Part shown: positions 2,681 to 61,214 of the stretch, in pieces
Layout: the number at the start of each line of letters is the position of its first letter
Position numbering within the stretch: position 1 is the first letter of the stretch
Assembly (NCBI GenBank): GCA_964397995.1
Contig: CAYNLG010000005.1
Span: 322-64,321 of the forward strand
Length of the DNA stretch: 64,000 nucleotides
Direction: 5' to 3'
Source: an uncultured Anaerolineales bacterium
GTDB lineage: Bacteria; Planctomycetota; Phycisphaerae; FEN-1346
Program-made: the position numbers and the translations under genes
The notes under the pieces: model-generated
What the model was told of the DNA's origin: nothing
Database searches by the model: none
Seen by the model: only the letters and a program-made list of their open reading frames with translations

Positions 2681-2830
2681 GGCGCCTTGGCGCGGGGGCT
2701 AGCCCCGCGGCGAAAAGCGCCGGCCGGCCTGCGTCTTGCTCTTTCTTCGCCTCTTTGCGGCCCTGCCGTTTTGCTGTCTTGCCGGTCTGTCGTGTGCTGT
2801 TCTGGCGCCTTGGCCGTTCTGCCCAGTCAC

Positions 2831-4279: not shown

Positions 4280-4840
4280 GATCGGAATCCTCTCGCCCGT
4301 GTGCCCGTCTTGCGTGGGAGGACCGGACTGCGGAGCGCCGCACGGCCCGGCCCCATTCTAGGGCCGCCGCGCGACAGGTTCAAGGACATGGGGGCTGTCG
4401 CAGACGTCCGTGCAAAGTGCGGGGCGTAACGATGGTCACGCCACCGAAACGCCCAAGCAATAGTAAGTCTTGGTTACCTGTTACAAGGAAGTCCACACCG
4501 CCGCCCAGCGCCGTGCCAAGGACGGGTAGGTCGCTGGCATCACGGCACGCCGCGGTCGGCCGCGCGGCCTTCGGGGGCTTCTCCGGTCGCCCTCCGGGCT
4601 CCCCGCGAAGCCCCCGAAGGCCTGGGTTCCATCTTCGCCATCGTGACACTCCTTTCCGTTCGGGCCTGCTCATTCTATCCGACGCAAAGGAGTGTCCAAG
4701 CTATCCCCGGGGCGGGAGCATCGAATCCTACCCAAGCCCGCGCCCGTTCGGTATAGTACCCGGGGCGCCGGGGTGCGCGGGGCGCGGCGTAGCGGCTGCG
4801 CGGCACCGGCGCGCTTCCGCGACCCCAGGCAAGGGCAGCC

Positions 4841-7486
4841 ATGGCACAGGTCAGTCCGGCCCTCAGCACGGGCCTTCCGGGGCTGGATCACGTTCTGCGC
4901 GGCCTGATTCCGGGCGACAACGTCGTCTGGGAGGTCCGCGACGTCGAGGACTACCGGCCCTTCGTCACCCCGTACGTCGAGGCGTCCCGCCGCCTCGGCC
5001 AGCCGCTGGTCTACTTCCGCTTCGCCCGCCACGAGCCGCTGGTCGGGCCGGAGGCGGGGGCCCGGGTCGTTGCGCTCGACCCGCAGGCGGGGTTCGAGGC
5101 CTTCCTCTCGGGCATCCACCGCACCATCGAGGAGACCGGCCACGGCGGGTACTACGTCTTCGACTGCCTCTCGGACCTGGCCGTGGACTGGTACAGCGAC
5201 CAGATGCTCGGGAACTTCTTCCGGCTGACGTGCCCGTACCTCTTTGACGTGCAGGCCCTGGCGTACTTCGCGGTGCTCCGCCACTACCACGCCGGCGAGG
5301 CCGTCGAGGCCATCTCCGGCACGACGCAGATCTTCCTCGACGTCTACCGCCACGACGGCCGCCTGTACCTGCACCCCGTGAAGGTCCAGCAGCGGTACTC
5401 GCCGACGATGTACATGCTGCACGAGTGGGACGAGGCGTCGGGGGCGTTCACGCCGGTCAAGCAGAGCGCCGAGACGAGCGAGGTCCTGACGAGCGACCCC
5501 GGCACGGGGCCGGGGTCCGACGCCCTGCGCATCGGCCTCTGGGGTCGCACCTTCGTCCAGGCCGAGGAGGTTTTGGCCGAGGCCGTCGATCCGGAGAGCA
5601 GCACGCCGAAGGCCGGTCGCCTGCGCGAGCGCCTGCTCCGCATGGCCGTCAGCCGCGACGAGCCCGTCCTGGCCCTGGCCGAGAAGTACCTGACGCTCGA
5701 GGACGTGGTGGCCGTGCGGAAGCGGATGATCGGCACGGGCCTGATCGGCGGCAAGACGGTCGGCATGCTGCTGGCGCGGGCGATCCTGCGGGCGAGCGAC
5801 CCGAAGTGGGCCGCGCGACTGGAGCCGCACGACTCGTACTACGTCGGCAGCGACGTCTTCTACACCTTCCTGGTCGAGAACGGCATCTGGTGGGTCCGCG
5901 AGCGCCAGAAGGACCCGCAGACGTTCCTGGACGGGTCGGAGCGGGCGCGGCACCGGATGCTGACGGGCGAGTTCCCGCCGGCCATCGTGGACCAGTTCGA
6001 GCGGATGCTCGACTACTTCGGCCAGTCGCCGATCATCGTCCGCAGCTCCAGCCTGCTGGAGGACAACTTCGGCAACTCGTTCGCCGGGAAGTACGAGAGC
6101 GTCTTCTGCGCGAACCAGGGCAGCCGCGACAAGCGCCTGGAGGACTTCCTGTCGGCCGTCCGGACCATCTACGCCAGCGCCATGAGCGAGCGGGCCCTGC
6201 GGTATCGGGCCGCCCGGGGCCTGCTGGACCAGGACGAGCAGATGGCCCTCCTGGTGCAGCGCGTCAGCGGCGCCCTCTACGGGACGCTCTTCTACCCACC
6301 GGTGGCCGGCGTCGGGTTCTCGTTCAACCCGTACGTCTGGGACGAGCGGATCGACCCGGACTCCGGCGTCCTGCGCATCGTCCTCGGCCTGGGGACGCGG
6401 GCGGTCGACCGCAGCGACGACGACTACACGCGCGTCGTCGCGATGAACGCGCCGGACCTGCGGCCGGAGTCGAACGTCGACCAGGCCCGCCAGTACGCCC
6501 AGCGCAAGGTGGACGTGCTGGACCTGGAGGCGAACCAGTTGGTCTCGGCGCGGCTGGCGGACGTGGCGCGGCGCAGCCCGGAGCTGCCGCTGGAGCTGCT
6601 GGCGACGCGGGACGAGGCCCTGGCGCGGCGGGCGGCCGAGGGCGGTGTCGCGGACGTCTTCCCGTGGGTGCTCACCTTCGAGCGGCTCTTCGGCGAGACC
6701 GACTACGTGGCCGACATGCGCGACATGCTCGCGACGCTCCAGGCCGCCTACGACTACCCCGTCGACGTCGAGTTCACCACGAACGCGACCGCCGACGGCC
6801 GGTACCGGATCAACCTCGTCCAGTGCCGCCCCCTGCAGGTCCAGTCCGCCGAGGGCCGGCCGACGGAGGCCCCGCCGGAGGACCTGCCGGAGGCCGACGT
6901 GGTGCTGGAGGCCCGCGGGGCGGTCATCGGCCCAAGCCGCGCCGGCACGGTCGACCGGCTCATCTTCGTCGATCCGGCGGTGTACGGGGAACTGGCGATC
7001 GGCGACCGGTACTCGGTGGCGCGGCTGATTGGGCGTCTGGTGCACGTGCCCAGCCGCGGGCCGGCGCCGGTGGTGCTCCTGGTCGGCCCGGGGCGATGGG
7101 GGACGACCACGCCGTCGCTCGGGGTGCCCGTTTCGTTCGCCGACATCAATGCCGCCTCGGCGGTCTGCGAGGTGGTGGCCATGCGGGACGACCTGGTGCC
7201 GGACGTCTCGCTCGGGACGCACTTCCTGAACGAGCTGGTCGAGATGGACGTGCTGTACTGCGCCCTGTTCCCGGGGCGCGAGGGGAACCGGCTGAACGCG
7301 GACCTCTTGCGGGCCGCGCCCGACCGGCGGCCGGAGTTGACGGACGAGGGCGGCGACTGGGTCCGCGCGGTCCGGGTGATCGACGGCGAGGCGCTGGAGG
7401 ACGGCGCCCGGCTGGTGCTGCACGCGGACACGCGGAAACAGCGGGTGCTCTGCTACCTGGAGCGCGTGGGCGAGAGCGGGGAGTAG
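4841..7486 (+). CDS. PEP/pyruvate-binding (PPDK-N / PEP-synthase-type ATP-grasp) domain protein with an atypical RecA/KaiC-like N-terminal region; no phosphohistidine swivel domain seen
   Basis: Middle region has LIGGKTVGMLLARAIL ... GNSFAGKYESVFC, typical of the pyruvate-phosphate-dikinase N-domain. The N-terminus GLPGLDHVLRGLIPGDNVVWEV resembles a KaiC/RadA loop but lacks the Walker A GxxxxGK[ST]. The GGxxSHxxI swivel motif is not seen. Confidence 0.6.
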   Translation: MAQVSPALSTGLPGLDHVLRGLIPGDNVVWEVRDVEDYRPFVTPYVEASRRLGQPLVYFRFARHEPLVGPEAGARVVALDPQAGFEAFLSGIHRTIEETGHGGYYVFDCLSDLAVDWYSDQMLGNFFRLTCPYLFDVQALAYFAVLRHYHAGEAVEAISGTTQIFLDVYRHDGRLYLHPVKVQQRYSPTMYMLHEWDEASGAFTPVKQSAETSEVLTSDPGTGPGSDALRIGLWGRTFVQAEEVLAEAVDPESSTPKAGRLRERLLRMAVSRDEPVLALAEKYLTLEDVVAVRKRMIGTGLIGGKTVGMLLARAILRASDPKWAARLEPHDSYYVGSDVFYTFLVENGIWWVRERQKDPQTFLDGSERARHRMLTGEFPPAIVDQFERMLDYFGQSPIIVRSSSLLEDNFGNSFAGKYESVFCANQGSRDKRLEDFLSAVRTIYASAMSERALRYRAARGLLDQDEQMALLVQRVSGALYGTLFYPPVAGVGFSFNPYVWDERIDPDSGVLRIVLGLGTRAVDRSDDDYTRVVAMNAPDLRPESNVDQARQYAQRKVDVLDLEANQLVSARLADVARRSPELPLELLATRDEALARRAAEGGVADVFPWVLTFERLFGETDYVADMRDMLATLQAAYDYPVDVEFTTNATADGRYRINLVQCRPLQVQSAEGRPTEAPPEDLPEADVVLEARGAVIGPSRAGTVDRLIFVDPAVYGELAIGDRYSVARLIGRLVHVPSRGPAPVVLLVGPGRWGTTTPSLGVPVSFADINAASAVCEVVAMRDDLVPDVSLGTHFLNELVEMDVLYCALFPGREGNRLNADLLRAAPDRRPELTDEGGDWVRAVRVIDGEALEDGARLVLHADTRKQRVLCYLERVGESGE

Positions 7487-7529
7487 GCCCGATGGCGCGC
7501 CGCACCGGCGATACCCGGGAGATTCCCCC

Positions 7530-7766
7530 GTGAACGTGCTGTACGTGGACCTGGACGCCACGCGGGCCGACCCCCTCGGCTGCTGCGGCCAGGCCCGGCC
7601 CGCGCCCCCGCACCTCGATGCGATTGCCGCCGAGGCCCCCGAGATGACCACCGGCCGCTCCGTCGAACGATACCTGGCCCGGCTCCGCGCGACGGGGCGC
7701 GACGCCGAGGCCGACGTGGTCGCGGCGCGGCTGGCGGCCGCACAGGGCGGGGAGGCGCCACCGTGA
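7530..7766 (+). pseudogene. 78-aa ORF resembling only the extreme N-terminus of an alkaline-phosphatase-superfamily sulfatase (possible gene remnant)
   Basis: MNVLYVDLDATRADPLGCCGQ resembles the sulfatase N-terminal metal/FGly region. The ORF is far too short for a sulfatase. Its stop overlaps the next gene's start. Confidence 0.25.
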
Positions 7767-8713
7767 ACATTGCTGTGCTCGACGGCCACACGCTGAACCC
7801 CGGGGACTTGGACTGGTCGGCCTTCGAGGCGCTGGGCACGGTCCGGGTCTACCCCCGCACGCCGCCGGACGAGACCGTCGCGCGGGCCCGCGATGCCGAC
7901 GCCGTACTGACGAACAAGACGCGCCTGACGGCCGAGGTGCTGGCGGCGATCGACCGGCTCAGGTACGTCGGCGTCCTGGCCACGGGATACGACGTCGTGG
8001 ACCTCGCGGCCGCGCGGCGGCAGGGCGTCACGGTGACGAACGTGCCTGGCTACGCGAGCCGGTCGGTGGTGCAGGCGACCTTTGGCCTGCTGCTGGAACT
8101 GACGAACGCCGTCGGACACCACGCCGGCACGGTCCGCGAGGGTCGCTGGACCGAGGCGCCGGACTTCTGCTACTGGGACCGGCCCCTCGTCGAGCTGGCC
8201 GGCCAGACGATGGGCGTGGTGGGTTACGGGGCCATCGGCCGCGCGGTGGCGGAGGTGGCCCGGGCGTTCGGCATGCACGTGCTCGTCCACAGCGTGCCGG
8301 CCCCGGCGGAGGCCGAGGGGGTGACGCGCGCGGACCTGGAGACGCTCTTTGCCGAGAGCGACGTGGTGAGCCTGCACTGCCCGCTGACGCCGGAGACGGC
8401 CGGGCTTGTCGGCGCCGAGCGGCTGGCGCGGATGAAGCCGACGGCGCTGCTGCTGAACACGGCGCGCGGGGGCCTGGTGGACGAGGCGGCCCTGGCGGCG
8501 GCGCTCCGCGAGGGGCGGCTGGCGGGGGCGGGGCTGGATGTCCTGAGCGCCGAACCGCCGCCCGCCAACCACCCCCTCCTGGCCGTGCCGAACTGCGTCA
8601 TCACGCCGCACCAGGCCTGGGCCGGCACCGGGTCGCGCCGGCGCCTCATGGCCGAGGCCGCGCGGAACCTGCGGGCGTTTCTCGACGGGCGGCCGCGCAA
8701 CGTCGTCACCTGA
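7763..8713 (+). CDS. D-isomer-specific 2-hydroxyacid dehydrogenase (glycerate dehydrogenase / hydroxypyruvate reductase family)
   Basis: NAD-binding GVVGYGAIGRAVA, catalytic-region RGGLVDEAAL, and overall collinearity with the GDH/HPR family. Confidence 0.85.
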   Translation: MNIAVLDGHTLNPGDLDWSAFEALGTVRVYPRTPPDETVARARDADAVLTNKTRLTAEVLAAIDRLRYVGVLATGYDVVDLAAARRQGVTVTNVPGYASRSVVQATFGLLLELTNAVGHHAGTVREGRWTEAPDFCYWDRPLVELAGQTMGVVGYGAIGRAVAEVARAFGMHVLVHSVPAPAEAEGVTRADLETLFAESDVVSLHCPLTPETAGLVGAERLARMKPTALLLNTARGGLVDEAALAAALREGRLAGAGLDVLSAEPPPANHPLLAVPNCVITPHQAWAGTGSRRRLMAEAARNLRAFLDGRPRNVVT

Positions 8714-8727
8714 ACGAAGGAGGTATC

Positions 8728-10128
8728 GTGGACCCTTATCGGTACGAGCGGACGATTCCCGCCGAGGGCGGGTGGGACCTGGTGGTCGCGGGCGGCGGGC
8801 CGGCGGGGACGGCGGCGGCGGTGTGTGCGGCGCGGCTCGGGGCGAAGGTCCTCCTGGCCGAGCAGACCGGGTGCCTGGGCGGCATGGGGACAAGCGGCCT
8901 GGTCTGCGCGTTCGACCCGATGGCCGACGGCGAGCGGACCCTCGTGGGAGGGCTCCAGCTCGAGATCGTCGAGACGCTGTACGCGCGGGGCGAGTTGCCG
9001 CCCCAGGTGACCCCCGCGTACTGGCGGAGCGCGTACCACCGGTGGACGCCGTTCCCGCCGGAGGCGCTGAAGCGGCTCCTGGACGAACTCGTGACGGTCG
9101 CGGGCGTGGAGGTCCGCTTCTTCACGCGTGTCATCGACGCCGACGCCGACGCCGAGGCCGGGCGCGTGCGCGGCGTCGTTCTCGAGAACGTCGAGGGGCT
9201 CCGCTACGTCGAGGCCCCCGCGTTCGTCGACGCGACGGGCGACGCGTGCCTGGCGGACGCGTGCGGCGCGGCCTACCGGCAGGCCGGGCGCGACACCGAG
9301 GCGATCATGCCGCCCACGTTGTGCAGCCTGCACGCGGGCATCGACTGGGACGCGATCCGGGACTTCGAACGGAGCGCCAACTACCGGAGCCAGGTCGAGG
9401 CGTATCACCAGGCCCTGGAAGACGGCCTGTTCAGCCAGTACGACCGGCAGATGTCCGGCGCCCTCAGCCGCGTCGGCCGCACCCTCGGCTACCTCAACTC
9501 CGGTCACGTCTTCGGCACGGACGCGACGAACTGCGGCAGTGTCACGGCGGCGATGATGCATGGGCGGCGGCTGGTCGGCGAATTCGTCCGGTTCTTCCGC
9601 GAGCGGCTGCCCTGGTGCCGCGAGATGGAACTGGTCGCGACGGCCCCGCGGCTGGGCGTTCGCGAGTCGCGCCGCATCGTCGGCGAGTACGAACTGGCCT
9701 TCGACGACTACCTGGCGCGGCGTCAGTTTCCGGACCAGGTGGGGGTCTTCAACAAGTTCGTCGACATCCACCCGGTCGACTGCTCGGACGCGGAGTGGGA
9801 ACGGTTTCAGGAGGAGAAGGACCGCACCGGCCGCCTCGGGCCCGGCGAGTGCTTCGGCCTCCCCTACGGCATCCTGGTGCCGCGCGGCTGGGCGAACTTG
9901 TGGGTGGCGGGGCGGTGCGCGAGTGCGGACGTGAAGGTGCACGGGTCGATCCGGGTGATGCCGGCGGCGTCGATGATGGGCCAGGCCGCGGGTACGGCTG
10001 CCGTCCAGTCGGTTCGCACGGGTCGCCCGGCGGGGGCGATCGACACCGCGCGCCTGGTGGAAACCCTCCGCGAGCAGGGCGCCTACCTGCCGCAGGCCGA
10101 CCTCCGCCCGACGCTGACGCGGGCCTAG
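8728..10128 (+). CDS. FAD-dependent oxidoreductase (FAD_oxidored-type)
   Basis: N-terminal dinucleotide motif DLVVAGGGPAGTAAAVCAARLGAKVLLAEQ. About 466 aa. This family is often found beside carbohydrate-active genes. Confidence 0.75.
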   Translation: MDPYRYERTIPAEGGWDLVVAGGGPAGTAAAVCAARLGAKVLLAEQTGCLGGMGTSGLVCAFDPMADGERTLVGGLQLEIVETLYARGELPPQVTPAYWRSAYHRWTPFPPEALKRLLDELVTVAGVEVRFFTRVIDADADAEAGRVRGVVLENVEGLRYVEAPAFVDATGDACLADACGAAYRQAGRDTEAIMPPTLCSLHAGIDWDAIRDFERSANYRSQVEAYHQALEDGLFSQYDRQMSGALSRVGRTLGYLNSGHVFGTDATNCGSVTAAMMHGRRLVGEFVRFFRERLPWCREMELVATAPRLGVRESRRIVGEYELAFDDYLARRQFPDQVGVFNKFVDIHPVDCSDAEWERFQEEKDRTGRLGPGECFGLPYGILVPRGWANLWVAGRCASADVKVHGSIRVMPAASMMGQAAGTAAVQSVRTGRPAGAIDTARLVETLREQGAYLPQADLRPTLTRA

Positions 10129-48400: not shown

Positions 48401-48994
48401 GACCAGGCGGTGCTCCAGGACTTCGCGACGGACGGGCGGCGGCTGCTCTTCTCGACGCTGCGGCCCGAGCCGGGCCAGGCGGGGGCCCTGCGGGTCGTCG
48501 CCGTCGACGGCACCCTGTACAAGGGGGTCGCCATTGTCGTCCTGCTGGCGCTGGGCCTGCTGCTCGCGCCGATGCGCTTCGGGCGCAAGGTGCTGGCCGT
48601 GGGCCTGCTCCTGGCGGCGGTGGTGCTGGGGGGGGTGTTCCTGCCGTCGGCGGCCCGGGCGACGGTCTCGACGGCCACCGTGGCCGCCTGCTGCGTCGTC
48701 CTCATTATCTGGACCCTCTGGTACCTGCTGATTACCCGGCCGCGCGACCCGCGCCGGCGCGAGCGGCGCGAGGCGCGCCTGGCGGCCCGGGAGCAGGCGG
48801 CCCAAGGCCGGGCGGGCAGCGCCGTCGAGCCCGTCGAGCAACCGCCCAAGGGCGAGCCGGAGGCCGTCGTCGAGGCGGAACCGGATGCGGCCGACCCCAA
48901 GGCCGACGCCGACCCCGAGGCCGCACCCCCGGACGAGGCGGGCGGCCAGGCCGACGAGGATGACACCCAGCGGGAGGAGGGCGGCCATGCGTAA
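45485..48994 (+). CDS. giant membrane-anchored modular protein A (~1170 aa: signal peptide, ~1000-aa extracytoplasmic beta-rich module, C-terminal 2-3 TM helices, acidic tail)
   Basis: Start chosen at MTRYGTWLWLAAVIGLCGTGTWAAAAA. Conserved N-terminal module motif IYIPYEKL...VFLPYERFQELWKAA. C-terminal TMs VAIVVLLALGLLLAP / VLAVGLLLAAVVLGGVF / VAACCVVLIIWTLWYLLI. Its stop overlaps the next gene's ATG by 8 nt. Confidence 0.7.
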   Translation: MTRYGTWLWLAAVIGLCGTGTWAAAAAAPPEAAPAAPAADDDAPLKEQTIYIPYEKLREVFEAQGRGVFLPYERFQELWKAAREARTRPPEAAPPIETLIAEAAYVATVAKDVVTVDGTLRIEVLKEGWNEIPLGLPHAAITRAALGDEPARIVSRGEAGYALLVENAADAPQVLELALTFAKAYTKAPGQNSVTFQAPRSPVSRWDVRIPESGVKVNIQPLLAATEVPDEAGADQTRVLAFVGAAPQVRIDWTPKAEGAKGLEALATVQCRQQVTIDEGVTRTRAELAYEISRAELPRLVVDVPLDQKVVNVFDPNVREWSVEQVAADEVRRIEVQLFEPAKGSQDLVVELEKFASDTLVAVPVVRARNVGRQQGWVVVGVADGLRAEAVRREGLLQVDATELPAPLRGKRWDFSYRYATVPFDLELRVETIQPRLLAETLVEAHLAPEDLTLDVLVVYDVQRAGVFNLAVRIPEGFEVRSVAGVQAGGAQPVVVDAHHVEAQPERRLVVNLGRKALGQVALAVQLHRPLREPDLLAPTGKAATVPVPVPRVDPETVERESGRLVVYAPESLRVNPETADGLRAVSHGEAVQGMRSTRRGGERPALAYAYSRDAVALALAAERRKPQVTVGQLLTARIESGVVQFEARLFYDILYSGVKSVRLDIPAEVAPELRVTSGDIRHTVDDDAADLADGMVAWRLTGETELMGRREIRLKWERTIEKLDLGNPTEIAIPRLVPREVDRAWGQIVLAKAETIDVMPAEMEESLRPIDPQHDLMHGVRIPDAALAFEFHDAWHMTVQATRYEPKDIKATAVEAAVVRFVVTRGDVTSVQALYRMRSFRQRLVIRLPGEVDFDIQPVRLNGRPVSLEQGEGGDYFVPLVGQEQNTPFLLELRYTVRGGGLTLSGPEFPEEPAIQKVYAAVYIPTEWVYLGKRGQWTPELVWRLRGFGAAPVGMYDSGWLLPWVTRGVDVDQAVLQDFATDGRRLLFSTLRPEPGQAGALRVVAVDGTLYKGVAIVVLLALGLLLAPMRFGRKVLAVGLLLAAVVLGGVFLPSAARATVSTATVAACCVVLIIWTLWYLLITRPRDPRRRERREARLAAREQAAQGRAGSAVEPVEQPPKGEPEAVVEAEPDAADPKADADPEAAPPDEAGGQADEDDTQREEGGHA

Positions 48995-51900
48995 CCTGCG
49001 CCCGCACCTGGCCGGCCTCGCGGCGCTCCTGGCCGTCGCCTCCGCGGCGACGGCGAGCCGCGACGCCCTGCCGCCCCAGCCGCCCGCCGACGAACTGGTC
49101 CGCGAACTGTACGTCCCGATGGAGGACCTGAACGTCCTCCTGCAGGGCGGGTCCCGCCGCGTCCTGCTGCCCCGCGACGAGTACGAGGCGCTTCTGGCGA
49201 AAGCGAAGCGCGAGGAGGAGGCGCGGCCGCCGCTCGCGGCAGCGCCCGTGGCGGCCGAGTACCAGATCGAGGTCGGCCGCGAACGCGCCCGCATCCGCGG
49301 CGCCGTCGAGGTCAACGTCCTGGCCCCCGGCCTCCATGCCGTGCCCCTCTCGGTCGGCCAGGTCGGCCTGGCCGAGGCGACGCTCGACGGCACGAGCGCC
49401 CCGCTGGGGCGCGGCGACGACGGGCGGCTGCATCTGTTCGTCGAGGGCAAGGGCCGGCACCGGCTGGAGTTGGCGGCCGTGGCGCCGCTCGAGACCACCG
49501 CCGCCCGCCAGGTCCTCCGCTTCGAGCTGCCGACGCCGGCGGCCACGCGCGTCCGTCTGACCGTGCCCGGCGACGTCGAGGTCAAGAGCGGCGCCGCCGT
49601 CCTCAGCCGCGCCTTCGACGAGGCCAACGGGGTCACCCGCATCGAACTGCTGCCCACACGCGGACCCACGGTGCTCGTCATGACCCTCAACAGCCGCCTC
49701 AAGCGGCTCGACCGCGTTGTGGTCGCCCAGAGCGTCCTGGTGGCCGAGGTCCGCCAGGCGGTCCAGCGCCTGACGGCGACGGTCTCGCTGGATGTCCTGC
49801 ACCGGGCGGTGGACGCCTTCCGGTTCGTCGTGCCCGCCGGGTACGAGGTGACCGACGTCCTCTCGCCGCAGCTCGCCCGCTGGGCGGTGACCGAGGAGGG
49901 CGGCCGGCGTATCCTGGAGGTCCAGCTCCGCGAGGAGGCCACCGGCACCGTCGTCCTGACCATCGGCACGGTCCGCCACGGCCGGGCCGTCGGGCCCTGG
50001 GCCATGCCGCGCCTCGAGCCCCTCGACGTGGTCGGCCACTCGGCCGTGGTCGGCCTGCTGCTGGAGGACCGGCTGAAGGCCGAGGCCCTCCAGCGCGACG
50101 GCCTCATCGGCATCGACACGCCCATGCTCCTGCGGGCCCTGCCGGCCGTGCCCGGCGCCGAGGTGACCGGGGGGCCGGTGCGGCCGGTGGCGGCGTACTA
50201 TGCGCCGCAGGCGGACTTCACCCTGACGGCCGACATCGCCAAGCCCCCCGCCGAACTGCTCGTGACCTCCAACCTGCTGCTCGTCCTCCAGGACAGCGGC
50301 CTGGAGCTCCAGGGCGGGCTGGCCATGCTCCCGAAGGAGGAGAAGCTCTTCACGTTCGATATCGCCGTGCCCGCCGGCTGGGACGTCCTCAGCGTCTCGG
50401 CCGAGGGCGGCCAGGCCCTGCCGTTCGAGCGCTACGGGCCGCGCGGCGAGGACGGCCGCGTCCACGTCCGCCTGCCCCGCGGTCTGGCCGCCGGCCAGGA
50501 GACCCGCATCTACTTCACCGCCAAGCGCGTCCCGGACGACTGGTTCGGCGCGTGGGAGACGCAGACGGTGGCGTTCCCGGCGTTCGCCGTGGCCGGGGCG
50601 GCCCGCGACACCGGGGCCGTGGCGGTCGACGCCCGCGACGACCTGCGGGTGCGGCCGGAGACGCTCGAGCGCCTGACCCCGCTGGACGAGAACGAGAAGA
50701 GCCAGTACGGCCTCGGCGGCGTCGCGACGAGCCTGGCATACCGCTACGAGGGCCGGCCTTACGAGGCCGAACTCCGCGTCACGCGCATCGAGCCGCGCCT
50801 GACCGCCGAGACGTTCAACTTCTTCCGCGTCGAGCGCGACGCCCGGGTCGCCCACTACGAGCTCATCTACACCGTGGAGCAGGCCCGGGCCCGCGAACTG
50901 CGGCTCGTTCTGCCGGCGTCCACGCCGACGGCCCTGGCGATCCGCGGCCTCGACGGCCTCGGCCTGAAGGAGTACACGAGCCAGGAGACCGACGGCGGCC
51001 GCGTGTGGACCGCCGTCCTCGCCGACGCCCGCAAGGGCACGCTCCGCCTGGCGGTCGACTTCGAGCAGCGGCTCGGCGAGGCCGAGCAGGAGACCCTGGG
51101 CCTGCCGCTCGTGCGGGCCGAGGGCGTCCAGTACCAGAGCGGGTTCGTCGCCGTCGAGGGCAGCCCGGAGCTGGACGTCCGCGTGACGGCCCACCCGCGG
51201 CGCGTCGACGTCGGCGAGCTGGTCGACGCCGACTACCTGCCGGGGCGGCGGCTGCTGGGGGCCTACGGTTTCGTCGGCGAGCCGCCCGCGGTGACGCTGG
51301 CCGTCTCGCGCCACGAGACCTACCCCGTGCCGCCCGCCCTCGTCGAGCGGGCCGAGCTGGCGACCGTCCTCTCGGCCTCCGGCGTCGCCCAGAGTGCCGC
51401 GCGCTTCCTCCTGCGGACCAAGGCCCTGTACCTGGAGGTGCGTCTTCCGGCGGGGGCGACGCTGTGGTCGGCCACGCTGGACGGCCGCCCCGCCAAACCC
51501 CAGCAGGAGGGCGAGCGGATTCTGCTCAGCCTGCCAGCGGGGGCTCCCGGCGCCGTCCGCGACCTGCAGGTGGTCTACGAGATGCTGGCCGATCGGCTCC
51601 TGCTCTGGGACCGGCTGGGCGTCCCCTCGCCGCGCCTCGTCCTCCACGAGACCGCCGCCGACAACGGCCGCCAAGTCCCCGTGACCGACCTGGTCTGGAC
51701 GCTGCAGACGCCGGCGGAGCACCGGGTGGTGGCGGCCGAGGGGAGCGTGGTGGCCGAGGGCATCGAGCCGCCCGCCCCGGCCGGGACGCGCGTGGCCGAG
51801 TGGTTGCTGGCGGCAAGCGGCGGGGTGGACTTCGACCACGGTCTGCTCGCGCTGCTGCTCCAGCCGCTCTCGTGCGCGGTCCAGAGCGGCCGGGCCCTCA

Positions 51901-54900
51901 AGAGCACCGAGTATGCCGATGCCCCCGCTTGGGATGACACCGGCGCCATGCCGTCCGAGCTGCCGACGGACGAGGAGGTGCTCGAGGCGGAGATGCCGCC
52001 CCCGGTGTCCCAGGCGCAGGCCGGGGACGTCGCGGGCGAGGCGGCCGCGACCGAGGGCACGGAACAGGCCGTGCGGCGGCCCGAGGAGCCCACGGCCCGC
52101 GAGGTCAGCAAGTGGGCCCTGGCCGGGGCGCGGAGCCTGAACATCGCCCTGACGCGGACGGACGAGGCGGGGGGCGTGGTGTTCCGGAGCCTCGGCGAAG
52201 AGCCGGCCCTGAACGTGACCATCGTCAGCCGGCGGCGCGTCGAGGCCCTGGCCTGGGGCCTGGCCGTGGCGGTCTTCGTCCTGGGCCTCGCCCTGACGCC
52301 GCGCTCCGCCGGCCGCAAGGCCGCCTACGTCGTCGTGGTGCTGCTGGCGGCGACGGCGTTGCCGGCCGTGCCGGGGTGGCTGGAGCTGGCCCTGGTGACG
52401 AACCCGGCCTTCTATGCCGCCTGCCTGCTGGTGCCGTATTACCTGGCGGCGGCGCTGGTCCGCGGGTTCCTGCGGGGGGTGGGCCTGGGGCCGAAGCCGG
52501 CGGCCGCGGCCGCCGCGGCGGCGCTCGTCGCGGCCGGGGTGCTGGTGGCGGGGGCCGGCGTGGCCGAGGCCACCGAGCCGGCGCCCGACCGGCCGTACGT
52601 CGTCCAGATCGTCCCGCTGCCCGACCCCGTGGACGTGCCGGACGACGCCATCCTCGTCCCCTACGACCCGGCCGCCGGGCCCGCCCGGGCCGGTCGCCTC
52701 CTCATCCCCTACGACCGCTACCGCGCTCTGTGGGAGCAGGCCTATCCGGACGAGCGCCGCGAGGGCGACCCGCCGCCGGCGGCGTATGCGCTGGCGGGCG
52801 CGGCCTACACGGCGCGCCTGGCGGGGGAGGAGTACCTGCTCGTGGAGGGCGGTCTGGACCTGGACGTCTACGAGGACGGCCTCATTGCCGTGCCCCTGCC
52901 GCTGGGGGGCGGCGTCCTGGCCCGGGCCGACCTGGACGGCCGGCCCGCCCGCCTCGGTGTGGGCGGCATGCCGGTGCCCGTGCCGAACGCGCCGCCCGGC
53001 TGGGTGGAGCCGGCGTCGGTCAACCTGAAGCAGCCGGTCCGCCAGGCCCCGGTCCAGCAGGCCGAACAGCAGGCCCGCCCCGGGGCGGCGCTGCTCGTCC
53101 TCTACGTCGAGGGCAAGGGCCGCCATCGCCTCGACCTGGCGGTGCGGATGAAGCTGGAGCGTCGCGGCGGGTGGCGCGTGGCCGAGGGCACCTTGCCGCA
53201 CGCCCCCGCCACGGCCCTCACCCTGACCGTGCCCGAGGCCGAGACCGAGCTGCGCCTGGGCGGCGTGGCCGACCGCCGCACCTACGAGACCAAGCAGCCC
53301 GGCGAGACCATCAGGACGGCCCTCGGGCCGGGGGGCGGCGTGACGGTCCGGTGGCGGCCGAAGGTCAGCGAGGGCCACGTCGATTACAGCCTGACGGCCG
53401 AGAGCGCGGCCCTGCTGGACGTCCAGGAAGACCGTGTGCGCCTGACCTGGGACCTGACGCTCCAGTTCCGGCGCACCGAGCGCGAGTTCTTCACCATCGC
53501 GCTGCCCGCCGGGTACCTGGTCGAGGAGGTGGCCGGGACGAACGTGCGGGGCTGGGAGATCCGCGAGGGCGCGGGGGGGCGGCGGCTGGAGGTGTCGCTG
53601 CTAAAGGCCGCCCGCGACGGCGAGTCGCTGCGCCTGACGCTCTGGCGGCCCGGCCGCGTCGCTGCCGCCGGCCCGGAGACCCTGGCCGTGCCGGTGGTGG
53701 GCGTCGAGGGCGCCGTCCGCCACAGCGGCCGCCTCACCGTCCGCCGCAGCCCCCTGCTGGACGTGCGGACGGTGGCGGCGCGCGGCGTCACGCGGACGGA
53801 CGTCCAGGCCGACGCCTTGCCGCGCACCGGCGCCGACGACAGCCCCCTCGGGACGCGGCCGTACCAGGCGTACGCGTTCGCCTCCGTCCCGTTCACCATC
53901 GAGCTGGGCGTCCAGCCGGTCGACGCCCGCGTCTGGGCCGAGGTCCAGTCCATCCTCCGCGTGGCCGACCGCGAGCGGCTCCTGGAGACGCGGGTCCTTT
54001 ACCACGTCCAGGACCGGCCCATCTACCGGGCGAGGCTGGCGATTCCGGACGACCTGGAGATCCGCGAGGTGACCGTGCCCGGGTCGTTCGAGTGGGCCGT
54101 CACGCGCGAGGCCGGGCGGAGGGTTCTGACGGTCTACTTCGGCAGCGGCGTCCTCGGCGACGTCCCGGTGGTCGTCCGTGGCAAGCTCGGCCAGGACGGG
54201 CCGGTCGAGGCCGTCCCCCTGCCGCGCCTGGCCGCCCTCGATGTCGACCGCCAGGAAGCCGACCTCGTCGTCCAGGTCGACCCGGCGTTCGACGTCCGGG
54301 CCCGCGACCTCGACGGCGTCGAGGTGGTCCTGCTGAAGCGGGTCCAGGGGTGGCTGAGCGGCGGGCAGCGCCAGCTCGCGCGCCTGGCGTTCCACATGCG
54401 CGAGCCGGTGTACGGCGGCCGCCTGGAGCTCTCGCCGCGGCAGCCGGACGTGAGCGGCTACACCGTCTCGAACGTCCGTGTCACGAGCCGCGCCCTGGAG
54501 GAAACGATCCTCCTCGTCTTCGACATCCGCCGCGCCGGCGTCCGCCAGGTCGTCTTCCGCCTGCCGGCCTACATGGCCGACGCGCGGATCAGTGTGCCGC
54601 TGCTGCGGCAGAAGACGGTGGAGCCGGTCGAGGGCACGGACCAGGTCCGCGTGACGCTGGACCTGCAGGACGAGGTGATGGACGAGTTGCGGGTGCTGGT
54701 GGAGCGGGACCGGCTGCTGACGCCCCAGGTCCACGAGGCGCCGGTCCCGGTCGTCGAGACCGGGCGCACCGACCGCCGGTACGTCGCCCTGGAAAGCGCC
54801 GGGCGCGACGAGGTCGTCGTCGAGGCGACCGAGGGCCTCGAACCCCTCAGCCGCCAGCAGAAGGAGTGGCGGACGGTGGCCGGCCTGCTCCAGGGCGGCC

Positions 54901-56777
54901 TGATGCAGGTCTACCTGGTCCGGGCCGACGCCGAGCCGCACCTGGCGTTCCGGACCAAGCAGCGGACGGCCGTGGAGACGGCCGGGGCCCGCATCGGGCT
55001 GGCCCGCACGGTCCTGATGATGGACGCCTCCGGGGCGTATCGCGGCGTGCAGACCTACCAGGTCGACAACAGCACCGAGCAGGTGCTGGCGGTGCGGCTG
55101 CCGGCGACGGCGCGGCTGTGGACGGCCCGGGTGGCCGGAGCCCTGGTCAAGCCGGCCGAGGCGGAGGGCGGCGACGCGAGCCTGGTGCGCATCCCGCTCG
55201 TAAAGACCGCCGCCGGCGACCTCGACTATCCAGTCGTCCTGAAGTACGGCGGCAAGCGGCCGCCCCCCGGCGAGGCCGGCCGCGTCGCGTTCCCCCTGAT
55301 CCGCACCGAGAACATCAACGTCGAGCTCAGCCAGGTCGAACTCCGCCTGCCGCGCACCCACCGCTGGGTCCACTTCGACGGCACCCTCGGCCGCGTCACC
55401 CGGGAGGGCGAGTTCGAGGCCGGCGTCCTGGCCTACCAGGGCAAGGTGCTGAAGCGGCTCGTCTCCACGCTCCAGTACGACAACGCCTTCGCCAAGGGCC
55501 GCGCCTTCACCAACCTCCGGCAGTTCCAGAAGGGGCTCAAGCAGACCCAGACGTACTACGCTGACCTGGCCGACCAGGAGGGCAACGAGCGGCTTCAGGA
55601 AGAGGTCCGCAACGCCGCCTCCCTCCTTCGCGAGGCCGACCGCCAGCTCGGCCTCCAGACGACCGAGACCGGCGAGCTCCGCCTCGGCGACGAGGGCCAG
55701 GTCTCCATCGACAACCGCGAGCGCCTCAACGACGCCTACGTGGGGCAGACCAACAAGCTCGCCCGCAACCAGGTCCAGGACGTCGGCGCCAACTGGTCCG
55801 GCGCCCTGAACGAGGCCGACGGCAAGGCCCAGTGGCGCTTCGTCAACCCGAACAACTTCAACTCCGGCTGGTTCGACGCCAACGGCCTGGTCGTCCAGGC
55901 CACCCGGGACGAGGCGGTCTCGGGCAAGGCCGCTGACCTCGACAAGAGCCGCGTCCTGTCCGAGTTCCAGATGCTGGATCAGCGCACGAAGCAGCTCAAG
56001 GCCCCCGCCATCCCCATGCAGAAGGGCGGCAAGGGCAAGGCCGACGCAGATGGCGACCGGCGCGATGAACGGTACCGCGAGGCTCGCCGTCGGGGCGGCC
56101 AGGCCGAAGCCGCCCAGCGCTACGTCCGCAAGCTCGAGGAGCAGCAACAGCAGCTCCAGGTCATCTCGGAGGCGGAAGAGGCCCTGCAGCGGCTGAACGT
56201 GACCGGCGGCGACCCCACGACCATCAACGACATCGTCACCCAGCACGAAGACGGCCTCCAGGCCGGGCGGGGGATCACGGTCTCCCTGGGGGGGGGCGCG
56301 GGCCAGGCCGTTGACTTCAGCGGTGGCCCCATCGCCGCCTTCGAGCACGGCCGCACACACGCCCTCGTCCGCCAGGGCGGCGAAGGCCGCACCGGCCTCG
56401 TCAGCCTGGACGTCGACCTGCCCGCCTTCGACGCGAGCCGCTGGCAACGCGTCCGCTTCACCACGCCGCGCGGCGACGTGCGGCTTGACGGCTGGGCCGC
56501 CTCCCGGTCGATGGTCGAAGGCCTGGAGCGGCTGGGCGTGGTGGTGGCGTCCGTGGCGGTGGTGCTGCTGGTTCGGGCCGTCGCCCGCCGCGCCCGCACC
56601 CGGGCGCTGCACGGGCTCCTCTCGACGGCGCTGATCGTCCTCGGGGCGCTCGGCGTGCTGTTCGGCGTCCTGCCGGTGGCCGGGTTGCTGGCCCTGCTGG
56701 CCGGCATCGTCTGGAAGATCGCGCGGGTCGTGGGGCGGCGGATCGGCGGAGCGGAAGTTTCGGGGACAGGATACTAA
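48987..56777 (+). CDS. giant modular protein B (~2596 aa): two tandem copies of the protein-A-type module, each ending in a multi-TM anchor
   Basis: ATG with GGGAGGAGG SD. Module 1 starts LYVPMEDL...VLLPRDEYEALLAKA and ends with TMs (LAVAVFVLGLAL; YVVVVLLAATALPAV; AFYAACLLVPYYLAAALV). Module 2 restarts after an internal signal-like helix with VVQIVPLPDP...LLIPYDRYRALWEQAY and ends with TMs (VVVASVAVVLLV; ALIVLGALGVLFGVLPVAGLLALLAGIV). The stop lies inside a palindromic repeat. Confidence 0.7.
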   Translation: MRNLRPHLAGLAALLAVASAATASRDALPPQPPADELVRELYVPMEDLNVLLQGGSRRVLLPRDEYEALLAKAKREEEARPPLAAAPVAAEYQIEVGRERARIRGAVEVNVLAPGLHAVPLSVGQVGLAEATLDGTSAPLGRGDDGRLHLFVEGKGRHRLELAAVAPLETTAARQVLRFELPTPAATRVRLTVPGDVEVKSGAAVLSRAFDEANGVTRIELLPTRGPTVLVMTLNSRLKRLDRVVVAQSVLVAEVRQAVQRLTATVSLDVLHRAVDAFRFVVPAGYEVTDVLSPQLARWAVTEEGGRRILEVQLREEATGTVVLTIGTVRHGRAVGPWAMPRLEPLDVVGHSAVVGLLLEDRLKAEALQRDGLIGIDTPMLLRALPAVPGAEVTGGPVRPVAAYYAPQADFTLTADIAKPPAELLVTSNLLLVLQDSGLELQGGLAMLPKEEKLFTFDIAVPAGWDVLSVSAEGGQALPFERYGPRGEDGRVHVRLPRGLAAGQETRIYFTAKRVPDDWFGAWETQTVAFPAFAVAGAARDTGAVAVDARDDLRVRPETLERLTPLDENEKSQYGLGGVATSLAYRYEGRPYEAELRVTRIEPRLTAETFNFFRVERDARVAHYELIYTVEQARARELRLVLPASTPTALAIRGLDGLGLKEYTSQETDGGRVWTAVLADARKGTLRLAVDFEQRLGEAEQETLGLPLVRAEGVQYQSGFVAVEGSPELDVRVTAHPRRVDVGELVDADYLPGRRLLGAYGFVGEPPAVTLAVSRHETYPVPPALVERAELATVLSASGVAQSAARFLLRTKALYLEVRLPAGATLWSATLDGRPAKPQQEGERILLSLPAGAPGAVRDLQVVYEMLADRLLLWDRLGVPSPRLVLHETAADNGRQVPVTDLVWTLQTPAEHRVVAAEGSVVAEGIEPPAPAGTRVAEWLLAASGGVDFDHGLLALLLQPLSCAVQSGRALKSTEYADAPAWDDTGAMPSELPTDEEVLEAEMPPPVSQAQAGDVAGEAAATEGTEQAVRRPEEPTAREVSKWALAGARSLNIALTRTDEAGGVVFRSLGEEPALNVTIVSRRRVEALAWGLAVAVFVLGLALTPRSAGRKAAYVVVVLLAATALPAVPGWLELALVTNPAFYAACLLVPYYLAAALVRGFLRGVGLGPKPAAAAAAAALVAAGVLVAGAGVAEATEPAPDRPYVVQIVPLPDPVDVPDDAILVPYDPAAGPARAGRLLIPYDRYRALWEQAYPDERREGDPPPAAYALAGAAYTARLAGEEYLLVEGGLDLDVYEDGLIAVPLPLGGGVLARADLDGRPARLGVGGMPVPVPNAPPGWVEPASVNLKQPVRQAPVQQAEQQARPGAALLVLYVEGKGRHRLDLAVRMKLERRGGWRVAEGTLPHAPATALTLTVPEAETELRLGGVADRRTYETKQPGETIRTALGPGGGVTVRWRPKVSEGHVDYSLTAESAALLDVQEDRVRLTWDLTLQFRRTEREFFTIALPAGYLVEEVAGTNVRGWEIREGAGGRRLEVSLLKAARDGESLRLTLWRPGRVAAAGPETLAVPVVGVEGAVRHSGRLTVRRSPLLDVRTVAARGVTRTDVQADALPRTGADDSPLGTRPYQAYAFASVPFTIELGVQPVDARVWAEVQSILRVADRERLLETRVLYHVQDRPIYRARLAIPDDLEIREVTVPGSFEWAVTREAGRRVLTVYFGSGVLGDVPVVVRGKLGQDGPVEAVPLPRLAALDVDRQEADLVVQVDPAFDVRARDLDGVEVVLLKRVQGWLSGGQRQLARLAFHMREPVYGGRLELSPRQPDVSGYTVSNVRVTSRALEETILLVFDIRRAGVRQVVFRLPAYMADARISVPLLRQKTVEPVEGTDQVRVTLDLQDEVMDELRVLVERDRLLTPQVHEAPVPVVETGRTDRRYVALESAGRDEVVVEATEGLEPLSRQQKEWRTVAGLLQGGLMQVYLVRADAEPHLAFRTKQRTAVETAGARIGLARTVLMMDASGAYRGVQTYQVDNSTEQVLAVRLPATARLWTARVAGALVKPAEAEGGDASLVRIPLVKTAAGDLDYPVVLKYGGKRPPPGEAGRVAFPLIRTENINVELSQVELRLPRTHRWVHFDGTLGRVTREGEFEAGVLAYQGKVLKRLVSTLQYDNAFAKGRAFTNLRQFQKGLKQTQTYYADLADQEGNERLQEEVRNAASLLREADRQLGLQTTETGELRLGDEGQVSIDNRERLNDAYVGQTNKLARNQVQDVGANWSGALNEADGKAQWRFVNPNNFNSGWFDANGLVVQATRDEAVSGKAADLDKSRVLSEFQMLDQRTKQLKAPAIPMQKGGKGKADADGDRRDERYREARRRGGQAEAAQRYVRKLEEQQQQLQVISEAEEALQRLNVTGGDPTTINDIVTQHEDGLQAGRGITVSLGGGAGQAVDFSGGPIAAFEHGRTHALVRQGGEGRTGLVSLDVDLPAFDASRWQRVRFTTPRGDVRLDGWAASRSMVEGLERLGVVVASVAVVLLVRAVARRARTRALHGLLSTALIVLGALGVLFGVLPVAGLLALLAGIVWKIARVVGRRIGGAEVSGTGY

Positions 56778-56838
56778 ACTCCCCCCGCTCGGGTCATGCG
56801 GCGTCGCCGTGACAGTTAAGTATCCTGTCCCCGAAACT
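56756..56838. repeat. palindromic REP/MITE-like element, copy 1 (25-bp inverted arms, 1 mismatch, 33-nt spacer)
   Basis: Left arm agtttcggggacaggatactaaact is 56756-56780. Right arm agttaagtatcctgtccccgaaact is 56814-56838. The spacer contains gcgtcgccgtgac. It encodes the last codons and the stop of the upstream giant gene. Confidence 0.85.
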
Positions 56839-56882
56839 CACGGCCGCTTGCTGCCCGCGAGGGCAGGGCGTATCCTGGGGCC

Positions 56883-57680
56883 ATGGCTCCAGACGACGCC
56901 CTGCCTTTCGCGCGCGCCGGCGGCACCGAAGGGGACCGGTACGCGCGGCACCGGGTGTTGGCGGGGGTCGGCCCGGCGGGGCAGGCGCGGCTGGCGGCCG
57001 CCTCGGCCCTGGTCGTCGGGGCGGGCGGCCTCGGGTCCGGGGCGCTGCCGTATCTGGCGGCCTTGGGCGTCGGCCGCCTCGGCCTCTCGGACGGCGAGAC
57101 GGTCGAGCCGTCGAACCTGAACCGCCAGGTCCTCTACGGCCCGGCCGACGTCGGCCGCGTCAAGGTCGAGGCCGCCGCCGAGCGCCTGGCCGCCGTCAAT
57201 CCCGACGTGCGGCTGGAGACGTTTGCCGCGCGCGTGACGGCCGAGACAGCCCGCGCCCGCGTGGCCGGGTGGGACGTGGTGCTCGACTGCACGGACAACT
57301 TCCCGGCCCGGTTCGCGGTGGCGGACGCCTGCTGGGCCGAGGGGGTGCCGCTCGTCTCGGCCGCCGCCGTCCGGTTCGAGGGCCTGCTGCTGGCGGTCCT
57401 GCCGGAGGCGGGGAGCCCGTGCTACCGGTGCCTCGTGCCGGAGGCCCCGCCGCGCGCCGACGAACCGCGGGCCCTGGAGGTCGGCGTCTTCGGGCCGGTG
57501 CCGGGGGTTCTCGGGACGCTCCAGGCGCTGGAGGCGGGGAAGGTGCTGCTCGGCCTCGGGGGGACGCTCGCGGACCGGCTGCTGGTCGTCGACGGCCTGG
57601 CCGGGACGATGCGGACCGTGCGGCGGACGCGTGACCCGGCGTGCCCGGTCTGCGGCGTAGTTTCGGGGACAGGATACTAA
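56883..57680 (+). CDS. ThiF/MoeB/HesA-family E1-like adenylyltransferase
   Basis: Nucleotide-binding LVVGAGGLGSGALPYLAALGVGRLGLSDGETVEPSNLNRQ. Paired CxxC motifs (CYRC ... CPVC). Its stop lies inside repeat copy 2. Confidence 0.8.
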   Translation: MAPDDALPFARAGGTEGDRYARHRVLAGVGPAGQARLAAASALVVGAGGLGSGALPYLAALGVGRLGLSDGETVEPSNLNRQVLYGPADVGRVKVEAAAERLAAVNPDVRLETFAARVTAETARARVAGWDVVLDCTDNFPARFAVADACWAEGVPLVSAAAVRFEGLLLAVLPEAGSPCYRCLVPEAPPRADEPRALEVGVFGPVPGVLGTLQALEAGKVLLGLGGTLADRLLVVDGLAGTMRTVRRTRDPACPVCGVVSGTGY

Positions 57681-57766
57681 ACTCCAGGACACGAAACTCT
57701 CCGCCCGGGGTCGCACTGCGTCGCCGTGACTCGCGAGCAGGAGTTTAGTATCCTGTCCCCGAAACT
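57659..57766. repeat. palindromic REP/MITE-like element, copy 2 (perfect 27-bp inverted arms, 54-nt spacer)
   Basis: Left arm agtttcggggacaggatactaaactcc is 57659-57685. Right arm ggagtttagtatcctgtccccgaaact is 57740-57766. The spacer shares gcgtcgccgtgac with copy 1. The minus-strand gene's stop abuts the right arm. Confidence 0.85.
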
Positions 57767-57767
57767 C

Positions 57768-58202
57768 TTACGGCAGGGCGTTGACGATCCGCCGCCAGTA
57801 CTTCAGCGTGGCCCGTTTGGCGTACCCCTTGGGCCCGCCGTTCCAGATGCGGGCGAAGACCTGGTCGGTGGGGTCGCGGCCGGTGGTGCGGCGATAGGCG
57901 TCGCCGTAATGGTCGAGGTACAGGGCCCAGATGCGGCGGCTCTTGGCGACGTTGTACCGGTCGGCCAGGGCGAACCGCTCGCTGAGGCCGCGGAGGCGGG
58001 CGATGCGGTTGACGTCGGCGAGGCAGGTCGGCCGGATCTGGACGATGCCGGCGGCCTTCTCGCGCCGGTTGTAGGCCCGGGCGTCGCCGCCCGATTCCAC
58101 GCGGGTCATCGCGGTCCAGAGGTTGTCGGACGGCGCGGCCGAGGCGGTGGTCGCGAGGCCGGCCACGGCCAACACGCCGGCGGCCAGGGTCTGCTTCAGC
58201 AT
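57768..58202 (-). CDS. secreted lysozyme-like / lytic-transglycosylase-like protein
   Basis: Signal MLKQTLAAGVLAVAGLATTASA. VESGGDARAYNRREKAAGIVQI resembles the SLT-domain ES...GxxQ catalytic region. Weak similarity. Confidence 0.4.
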   Translation of the reverse strand: MLKQTLAAGVLAVAGLATTASAAPSDNLWTAMTRVESGGDARAYNRREKAAGIVQIRPTCLADVNRIARLRGLSERFALADRYNVAKSRRIWALYLDHYGDAYRRTTGRDPTDQVFARIWNGGPKGYAKRATLKYWRRIVNALP

Positions 58203-58583
58203 CGGTTCGGTTCTCCGTGGCTTGGGCGGAGCCCCCGCCGGACGGCACGGCGGCCGCACGGGGCAGGGGGGATCGACGCGCGCGGCGGCTCAGGGACGGA
58301 GCGCCATCGCGGGCTCGGTCGGTTCATGGAATCGCGCCGGGAGACGGTACAGGGTGGTCCAACGGCGAGGAAGCGGCCGGCGCGGACGCCGCGTCCCCCA
58401 AGACGCGGCGCGTGGCGTCGATCAGGTCTCCGTCTTCAATGCCCCCTTGTGGCAGTGCGAAAGACACGCGGTGGCGAGCCCGAGCCCGTCACCGCCGCTC
58501 CTTAGTGTAGCGCACGTTTCGCGGGCGGTCAACCGACTTGTGCCCTCGGCGCGCCGTCAGGCCGCCGGCCCCCGCCCGTGCTG

Positions 58584-61214
<2,631 letters not shown>

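Follow-up and report, generated by a model that had tools for sequence, protein, structure and literature searches.

The window analyzed here, a stretch of 64,000 nucleotides (nt) from contig CAYNLG010000005.1, carries two closely related palindromic elements, one at the 3′ end of a giant open reading frame (ORF) and one at the 3′ end of a ThiF/MoeB-family gene. With a probability that we put at about 0.8, both elements are non-autonomous, gene-less, REPIN-like dimers of the end repeat of a TIRYT-type Y1/HUH transposase. REPINs, as reportedly described by Bertels and Rainey in 2011, are hairpin-forming doublets of repetitive extragenic palindromic (REP) sequences that are mobilized by REP-associated tyrosine transposases (RAYTs). 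The evidence lies in the anatomy of the elements, in the distribution of their repeat unit, in its linkage to transposase genes and in the absence of the elements from a syntenic relative, all of which were observed directly. The parts of the two elements are as follows.

56756 to 56782, plus strand: copy 1 left unit, AGTTTCGGGGACAGGATACTAAACTCC; the giant ORF stops at its TAA (56775-56777)
56783 to 56813: copy 1 spacer; the block at 56791-56813 is common to copy 2 (83% identity)
56814 to 56838, minus strand: copy 1 right unit, inverted, with one mismatch (TTAAGT for TTTAGT)
57659 to 57685, plus strand: copy 2 left unit, the same as the left unit of copy 1; the ThiF gene stops at its TAA (57678-57680)
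57686 to 57739: copy 2 spacer, with the shared block at 57708-57730
57740 to 57766, minus strand: copy 2 right unit, inverted, fully complementary to the copy 2 left unit

Copy 1 (56756-56838, 83 bp) has arms of 25 nt (56756-56780 and 56814-56838) that are 96% complementary and separated by a spacer of 33 nt. Copy 2 (57659-57766, 108 bp) has perfect arms of 27 nt (57659-57685 and 57740-57766), with complementarity of 89% over 36 nt. The left arms of the two copies are identical over 27 nt and the right arms are 96% identical; the shared 23-nt spacer block includes GCGTCGCCGTGAC, and a degenerate partial arm end, ccaggacacgaaactc (57684-57699), reaches into the copy 2 spacer. Since the copies align end to end with two indels, they represent two copies of one dimer and not independent hairpins. 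When the arm 24-mer was searched with up to three mismatches, the four matches in 64 kb were the four arms themselves and none of 100 shuffled sequences gave a match, which excludes chance. The two elements are the longest local inverted repeats of the whole window, and the G+C content of the arms is 44% by direct count, against 72% for the window. The initial annotation of this DNA had given the same coordinates, with arms of 25-27 nt and related spacers, and had proposed that the RNA be folded; the predicted structures are very stable hairpins of -52.9 kcal/mol (z -6.5) for copy 1 and -65.7 kcal/mol (z -7.3) for copy 2, with similar values on the minus strand.

In both host genes the stop codon is the TAA at arm position +18, and the donated stops and identical VSGTGY tails pointed out in the initial annotation are real. 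The sequences flanking the elements, GCGGA/CACGG for copy 1 and GGCGT/CTTAC for copy 2, contain no target-site duplication at either copy. At window position 56758, two independent Logan assemblies (SRR7048219 and SRR7048224; loci L078 and L079) match the window at 100% identity, and each of their contigs begins exactly within the copy 1 left arm; this could be a repeat-induced assembly break or could reflect population heterogeneity at the insertion. A G+C-rich hairpin elsewhere in the window (4566-4622, between ORFs) has arms of 27 nt, 85% complementary, around a loop of 3 nt; it is no member of the repeat family and is possibly an ordinary terminator.

The distribution of the unit was surveyed by an exact 19-mer scan of species-representative genomes and an exact 18-mer scan of metagenome contigs. 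The latter placed the arm core, GTTTCGGGGACAGGATAC, on 68 metagenome contigs, many of them with several copies. Among the genomes, full hairpin dimers were present in metagenome-assembled genomes (MAGs) labeled Caulobacteraceae (L001, L007) and Anaerolineales (L005). A MAG labeled Phycisphaerae had tandem units (L004/L006), and one labeled Sumerlaeota had a degenerate copy (L008). Roughly a dozen loci of low G+C content (for example L002, L012, L017, L058, L032, L077 and L053) were excluded because they look like chance or coding matches. Of the 126 non-redundant units, 57 stand alone, 47 form part of hairpin dimers 50-175 nt long and 22 are in tandem, and several dispersed copies per contig were seen in L010, L030, L035, L039 and L066. 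The initial annotation had suggested a small family of mobile, REP-like or MITE-like (miniature inverted-repeat transposable element) palindromes, and held that a 27-mer confined to these two sites, with orthologous loci that carry it as an ordinary conserved terminator, would speak against mobility; the arm core occurs far beyond the two sites, in a wide range of unrelated settings, and is found on either side of Y1/HUH transposase genes.

The unit can be written (R)GTTTCGGGGACAGGATAC-NWAWY and is about 25 nt long. In a position profile of 121 units, conservation runs from -2, where there is a purine bias, to about +24, which is the length of the arms in the window, and positions +18 to +24, outside the search core, still read N-W-A-W-Y. 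Subfamilies are distinguished 3′ of the core by GAAATAG.., GAAATACCGAATTCC.., TAAATA.., TTATCCCC, CTATCCC, TAATTAAG.. and the window type, T[ACT]AACTCC. Another subfamily, GTTTCGGGGACAGGATACGAAATACCGAATTCCGGGGGGATATAC.., consists of longer single units (45 nt or more) and is present in L010 (228, 746, 1426), L035 (4668, 5661), L066 (779, 6103), L028, L051 and L072, with several units per contig and no inverted partner; its extended 3′ portion could represent another type of structural module. At the contig end of L074 (10271-10541) there are four tandem copies of the unit with an identical 45-nt extension (TAAATACACGTCTACCTCGAGGAGCGAGTTCGCAGGGATTGC), spaced 62-93 nt apart. A CRISPR reading of such GTTTC...GAAAC repeats was rejected on account of this irregular spacing, the inverted pairs and the identical 'spacers'.

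Some loci contain a nested 5′ 'stutter', in which partial unit prefixes are fused to a new GTTTCG start, as in GTTTCGG/GTTTCGGGGACAG/GTTTCGGGGACAGGATAC (junctions marked by slashes; L022 1180-1310, L025 1-300, L055 150-400, L039 7640-7690 and 8960-9010, L074 10260-10520). The 39 non-redundant junctions show prefix-length peaks at 7-8 and 13, and the restart is always the G of GTTTCG. This constancy suggests either a defined cleavage/joining site or slippage.

A link between the unit and a transposase was found on contig L039, where a 226-aa ORF (7693-8370, minus strand) lies between unit arrays of opposite orientation and has its stop codon inside a unit. The protein has a Pfam match to Y1_Tnp (E = 6e-13), among NCBIfam models it fits best that of the REP-associated tyrosine transposase, REP_Tyr_transpos (E = 1.7e-18), and it is distantly related to ISDra2 TnpA structures. 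Alignment with five homologues showed invariant NHxH (HuH), Y119-x3-NP and WSS motifs and a C-terminal TGRP...LE...R..P. As a guard against circularity, loci were also fetched protein first, for homologues 54-86% identical to the L039 protein; the transposase family as a whole contains at least 1746 clusters at E <= 1e-20. In every homologue locus fetched (L083, L084, L086, L088, L090/L091, L092, L093), a repeat containing GGGGACAG was present just upstream of the gene. An inverted copy lay at, or adjoining, the 3′ end of the gene in all of these loci except L093, in which the sole downstream repeat is a separate dimer about 160 nt away. The flanking repeats, with the identity of each protein to that of L039, are as follows.

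L090/L091, 86% identity: GTTTAGGGGACAGGATACGAAATAG and its inverse
L088 and L092, 64-66% identity: GGGGACAGGTTAT
L093, 63% identity: GGGGACAGGTTAA
L083, 60% identity: AATCGGGGACAGTCATCG
L086, 56% identity: GGGGACAGCAACCGTAAG
L084, 54% identity: AAAAAGGGGACAGACTACGAATTA

The transposases bounded by the GGATAC-type repeat, those of L039 and L090/L091, are 224-226 aa long, and among the 54-66% homologues GGGGACAG is followed by the lineage-specific 3′ parts GTCATCG, ACTACG, CAACCG, GTTAT and GTTAA. Because the flanking repeat differs by protein lineage, it co-varies with the transposase, and the GGATAC type of the window goes with the L039 clade.

Beside the complete gene, the region 8380-9060 of L039 contains a tandem duplication of the first 50 codons of the transposase (8465-8614, 84% identity), together with repeated modules that combine the unit with a promoter-like sequence (...GACTTGACAGGAAGCAAGAAAAAGGG...). 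The TTGACA-containing leader is kept in L090/L091. A further contig, L062 (1-80, 758-886), encodes a 40%-identical Y1 transposase with a unit in non-canonical orientation directly after its TGA, followed by a nearly loop-less dimer; upstream of this gene are different short repeats, CCGAAATTGTA and CGTAATTCTGAG, each present twice.

The genes at the insertion sites were compared with those of a relative that lacks the elements. In the window they are the following.

48885 to 56777, plus strand: giant ORF, 2630 aa, no Pfam domain; the last six codons and stop come from copy 1
56883 to 57680, plus strand: ThiF/MoeB-family gene, 265 aa, full-length match to Pfam ThiF (E = 1e-69); the last six codons and stop come from copy 2
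57768 to 58259, minus strand: convergent ORF, 163 aa; stops at a TAA of its own, 5 nt beyond the core of the copy 2 right unit and 1 nt past the arm end at 57766

The giant ORF ends ...RRIGGAEVSGTGY, that is ...GGAEVSGTGY, and the ThiF protein ends ...CPVCGVVSGTGY. The closest ThiF homologue on a long contig (P0004 on L080, 64% identity) is encoded directly after a gene of 2666 aa (1904-9904) that is orthologous to the giant ORF, with 45% identity over the last 121 aligned residues; the alignment of the two giant proteins stops 11 and 14 residues, respectively, short of their two ends. The unit was not found with up to four mismatches anywhere in the 20.8 kb of L080, and the genes there have stops of their own, the giant gene ending ...AIAAAA and ThiF ending CPLCGPGAA. 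In a set of 20 ThiF homologues, every C terminus consisted of CP(V/L)CG followed by 2-20 variable residues. Since L080 has the giant gene and then ThiF without any repeat, this gene order predates the repeats and ThiF was not captured. The suggestion of the initial annotation that the palindromes had captured or delimited the E1-like gene is contradicted by this synteny and by the normal ends of the ThiF homologues. The dimers instead inserted at pre-existing gene ends, replacing only the final few codons and the stop. The ThiF gene is thus an ordinary family member and not captured cargo, and the VSGTGY shared by two unrelated proteins is a repeat-encoded C terminus, a point of use for annotation.

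A dimer of the window type, its spacer alignable in part, is found on a different contig (L005) of the MAG to which L080 belongs (GCA_964526295.1), so the lineage does carry the repeat family. The same MAG was deposited as 'uncultured Anaerolineales bacterium', a label in conflict with the best named ThiF homologues, which are from Phycisphaerae or Planctomycetota and by which the source of the window is probably Planctomycetota/Phycisphaerae-like. The giant ORF has a hydrophobic C-terminal segment, and in L080 another large domain-less gene precedes its counterpart. At the convergent ORF, the stop codon does abut the right arm of copy 2, as the initial annotation had it, and its label 'lysozyme-like' has as its sole basis an SLT match (E = 8.8e-4) that is below threshold, at 19.3 bits against a cut-off of 21.3.

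The favored interpretation of these data is that the unit of about 25 nt is the inverted-repeat end recognized by a class-2 Y1/HUH tyrosine transposase (TIRYT; RAYT Group 1; TnpAY1 subclass 2.1), and that a head-to-head dimer of units would form a hairpin when single-stranded. With its gene elsewhere in the genome, a transposase could then excise or copy dimers by way of this single-stranded form and reinsert them in trans, without target-site duplication. Two related dimers would have landed at the 3′ ends of the giant gene and ThiF, overwriting the last native codons and the stop. Only one of the three forward frames of the unit contains a stop, GTT TCG GGG ACA GGA TAC TAA, and an insertion that destroys a stop would be tolerable mainly in this frame. 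With a single stop-bearing frame, identical VSGTGY tails are expected and are not surprising. Among 23 units abutting codon-biased ORF ends, the stop lay 3-9 nt upstream of the unit in 10 and at +18 to +30 in five; one of the five belongs to a minus-strand ORF at 56820 that overlaps the start of ThiF and is likely to be spurious. The convergent ORF has the commoner layout, with its own stop 3-9 nt outside the unit core. Such tight proximity to stop codons could stem from target choice or from selection.

Could the palindromes simply be host regulatory hairpins, bidirectional terminators or stabilizers of mRNA 3′ ends, that merely look alike? Each is located at the 3′ end of a gene, one lies between convergent genes, and their folds are very stable. 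Note, however, that a terminator scan of 56000-58600 returned no sites and that neither stem is followed by a T-tract (the tails are CACGGCC and CTTACGG), so that the bidirectional terminator of the initial annotation finds no support as one of the canonical intrinsic type. Searches of the region and of the whole window against Rfam returned no relevant family: the one match in the region was a chance microRNA hairpin model (E = 0.24, far below the gathering score), and the Rfam content of the whole window is two tRNAs only. A fixed host structure also fits poorly with the absence of the elements from the syntenic L080, with native stop codons overwritten by hairpins, and with an 18-25-nt unit that sits beside unrelated genes in many organisms and flanks transposase genes; we regard this explanation as very improbable. 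An effect of the hairpins at the RNA level is a separate and possible matter, as 3′ stabilizers or in translation termination. REP hairpins can shield upstream mRNA from 3′ exonucleases, and REPs very near a stop codon can lower translation. Hairpins of -53 and -66 kcal/mol may thus protect 3′ ends or influence termination or translation, and it is conceivable that a stop codon within the 5′ arm affects translation termination.

Classical MITEs, that is, internally deleted copies of insertion sequences with a DDE transposase, which move by cut and paste through their terminal inverted repeats, would account for the sizes of 83 and 108 bp and the terminal inverted repeats of 25-27 bp, in the manner of Correia, RUP and Nezha-type elements. 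Neither copy has a target-site duplication, however, and the sole gene found bounded by the repeats encodes a Y1/HUH and not a DDE transposase; single units and tandem partial 'stutter' copies, which are common in the family, are also unlike MITEs. This origin appears even less probable than that of host hairpins. The near-identical palindromes on either side of one gene also recall attC sites around integron cassettes, and they might be the boundaries of a composite unit or cassette that moved ThiF in. Against this, L080 keeps the giant gene followed by ThiF without any repeat, the arms end in GTTTCGG, which departs from the attC core GTTRRRY, each element is already a complete hairpin dimer, and ThiF is an ordinary full-length family member. 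We consider such boundaries to have next to no likelihood, and capture of ThiF by an integron attC or composite-transposon route was ruled out by the L080 synteny.

Several points weigh against the reading of the elements as transposase-dependent dimers. The L039 protein scores 66.9 bits against its NCBIfam model, below the curated cut-off of 80, and the helix-turn-helix (HTH) similarity described for the C terminus of subclass 2.1 was not seen with Pfam, there being no match to Bac_DnaA_C, HTH_23 or HTH_28 at E up to 5. No transposase gene was found in the 64-kb window by tblastn with six diverse queries, which leaves the cognate enzyme of this genome unobserved. The exact-match search inflates the apparent invariance of positions 0-17. 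Copy number is low in comparison with classical REPs and REPINs, at two dimers in 64 kb and 1-3 exact-core loci in the MAGs, in which repeats collapse on assembly. The GGATAC units of L062 may be ordinary insertions beside a non-cognate transposase gene. Finally, we know of no TIRYT for which cleavage of its own repeats has been shown biochemically.

A wider form of the transposase-end reading, which we hold to be doubtful, is that a family with an essentially invariant core of 18 nt has spread together with its Y1 lineage over at least four labeled phyla, preferring sites on stop codons or a few nucleotides from them, and that the GTTTCG stutter marks the point of cleavage and joining. The cross-phylum spread rests on record labels, among them that of the 'Caulobacteraceae' MAG contigs (L001, L007), which could be mis-binned. 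Neither a distant blastn search of plasmids nor a scan of viral contigs gave a match to the repeat, and thus no vector of horizontal transfer emerged. Vertical inheritance characterizes the classical REPIN-RAYT systems (Groups 2 and 3), which are gammaproteobacterial; if the wider form is true, the present system would, unlike those pairs, be a horizontally mobile, stop-codon-proximal, REPIN-like one.

In comparison with known systems, the elements belong to an already known kind, that of REPIN-like, TIRYT-associated dimers of terminal inverted repeats (TIRs), and their biology is not new in kind. RAYT-like genes with TIRs that share GGGGWSAS, and that are not GTAG REPs, were named 'TIRtrons' or 'TIRYTs'; their repeat families are of moderate abundance and occur as singles, dimers or clusters, and REP termini often give neighboring ORFs their stop codons (Di Nocera et al. 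2013, BMC Genomics 14:522, PMC3733652). The stop donation seen here is accordingly a known consequence of such repeats. TIRYTs are TnpAY1 subclass 2.1, equivalent to Bertels' RAYT Group 1, and class 2 has the signature Y---NP; no REP-like secondary structures were detected beside subclass 2.1 genes (Quentin et al. 2018, PMC6006769). RAYT Group 1 has the widest distribution among the RAYT groups, with some members on plasmids and with flanking 16-mers present in about 12 genomic copies (Bertels et al. 2017, PMC5581495).

The family described here resembles these systems in that GGGGACAG fits GGGGWSAS; each of the four arms in the window contains it, and it shows no variation across 121 units. 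The unit is inverted around a Y1/HUH gene, whose ends it overlaps or adjoins (L039 and L090/L091, with sister types in L083, L084, L086, L088 and L092), and copies of it, low to moderate in number, are found alone, in dimers and in clusters. It lacks both self-complementarity and a GTAG tag. The transposase carries the class-2 signature and a conserved C-terminal extension. The family differs in that the C-terminal domain of its transposase gave no HTH-type similarity in Pfam, and in that the family is found mainly in sediment metagenomes and in MAGs labeled Phycisphaerae, Anaerolineales, Caulobacteraceae and Sumerlaeota. A full-text search of the searchable literature with a 13-mer core did not find this particular unit, GTTTCGGGGACAGGATAC...; its one match was to an unrelated human paper.

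With REPINs the elements share two inverted short repeats and a spacer that together form a long hairpin, a non-autonomous nature, linkage to a Y1 transposase gene bounded by copies of the repeat, and a dimer that is copied as a unit, spacer included. The unit is, however, not a small palindrome (self-complementarity of at most 4-5 bp) and has no 5′ GTAG/GTGG tag; copy number seems low beside the tens to hundreds per genome of REPINs, and the core is common to MAGs labeled as different phyla. A GTAG tag had been suspected from a few flanks (gcGTAGtttc) and was rejected, as positions -4 to -1 of the 121-unit profile have no GTAG signal and only a purine bias at -2 and -1. With no GTAG foot and a unit that is not palindromic, the family is not filed as classical REP or REPIN. 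The GTAG REPs and bacterial interspersed mosaic elements (BIMEs) of enterobacteria and pseudomonads, which are known to stabilize upstream mRNA, likewise lie at gene 3′ ends and between convergent genes and supply stop codons, but they have another sequence, with a GTAG foot that is absent here, and another transposase subclass. Bacterial MITEs such as Correia/NEMIS, RUP and ERIC are similar in size, terminal inverted repeats, hairpin RNA at gene ends and altered ORF termini; they differ in that the present elements have no target duplication and an HUH/Y1 enzyme in place of DDE. A well-defined and widely distributed repeat family is thereby added to the poorly studied TIRYT/RAYT Group 1 class, for no member of which, to our knowledge, repeat-processing activity has been demonstrated, and its conserved unit, lineage variants and stutter junctions are concrete substrates for biochemistry.

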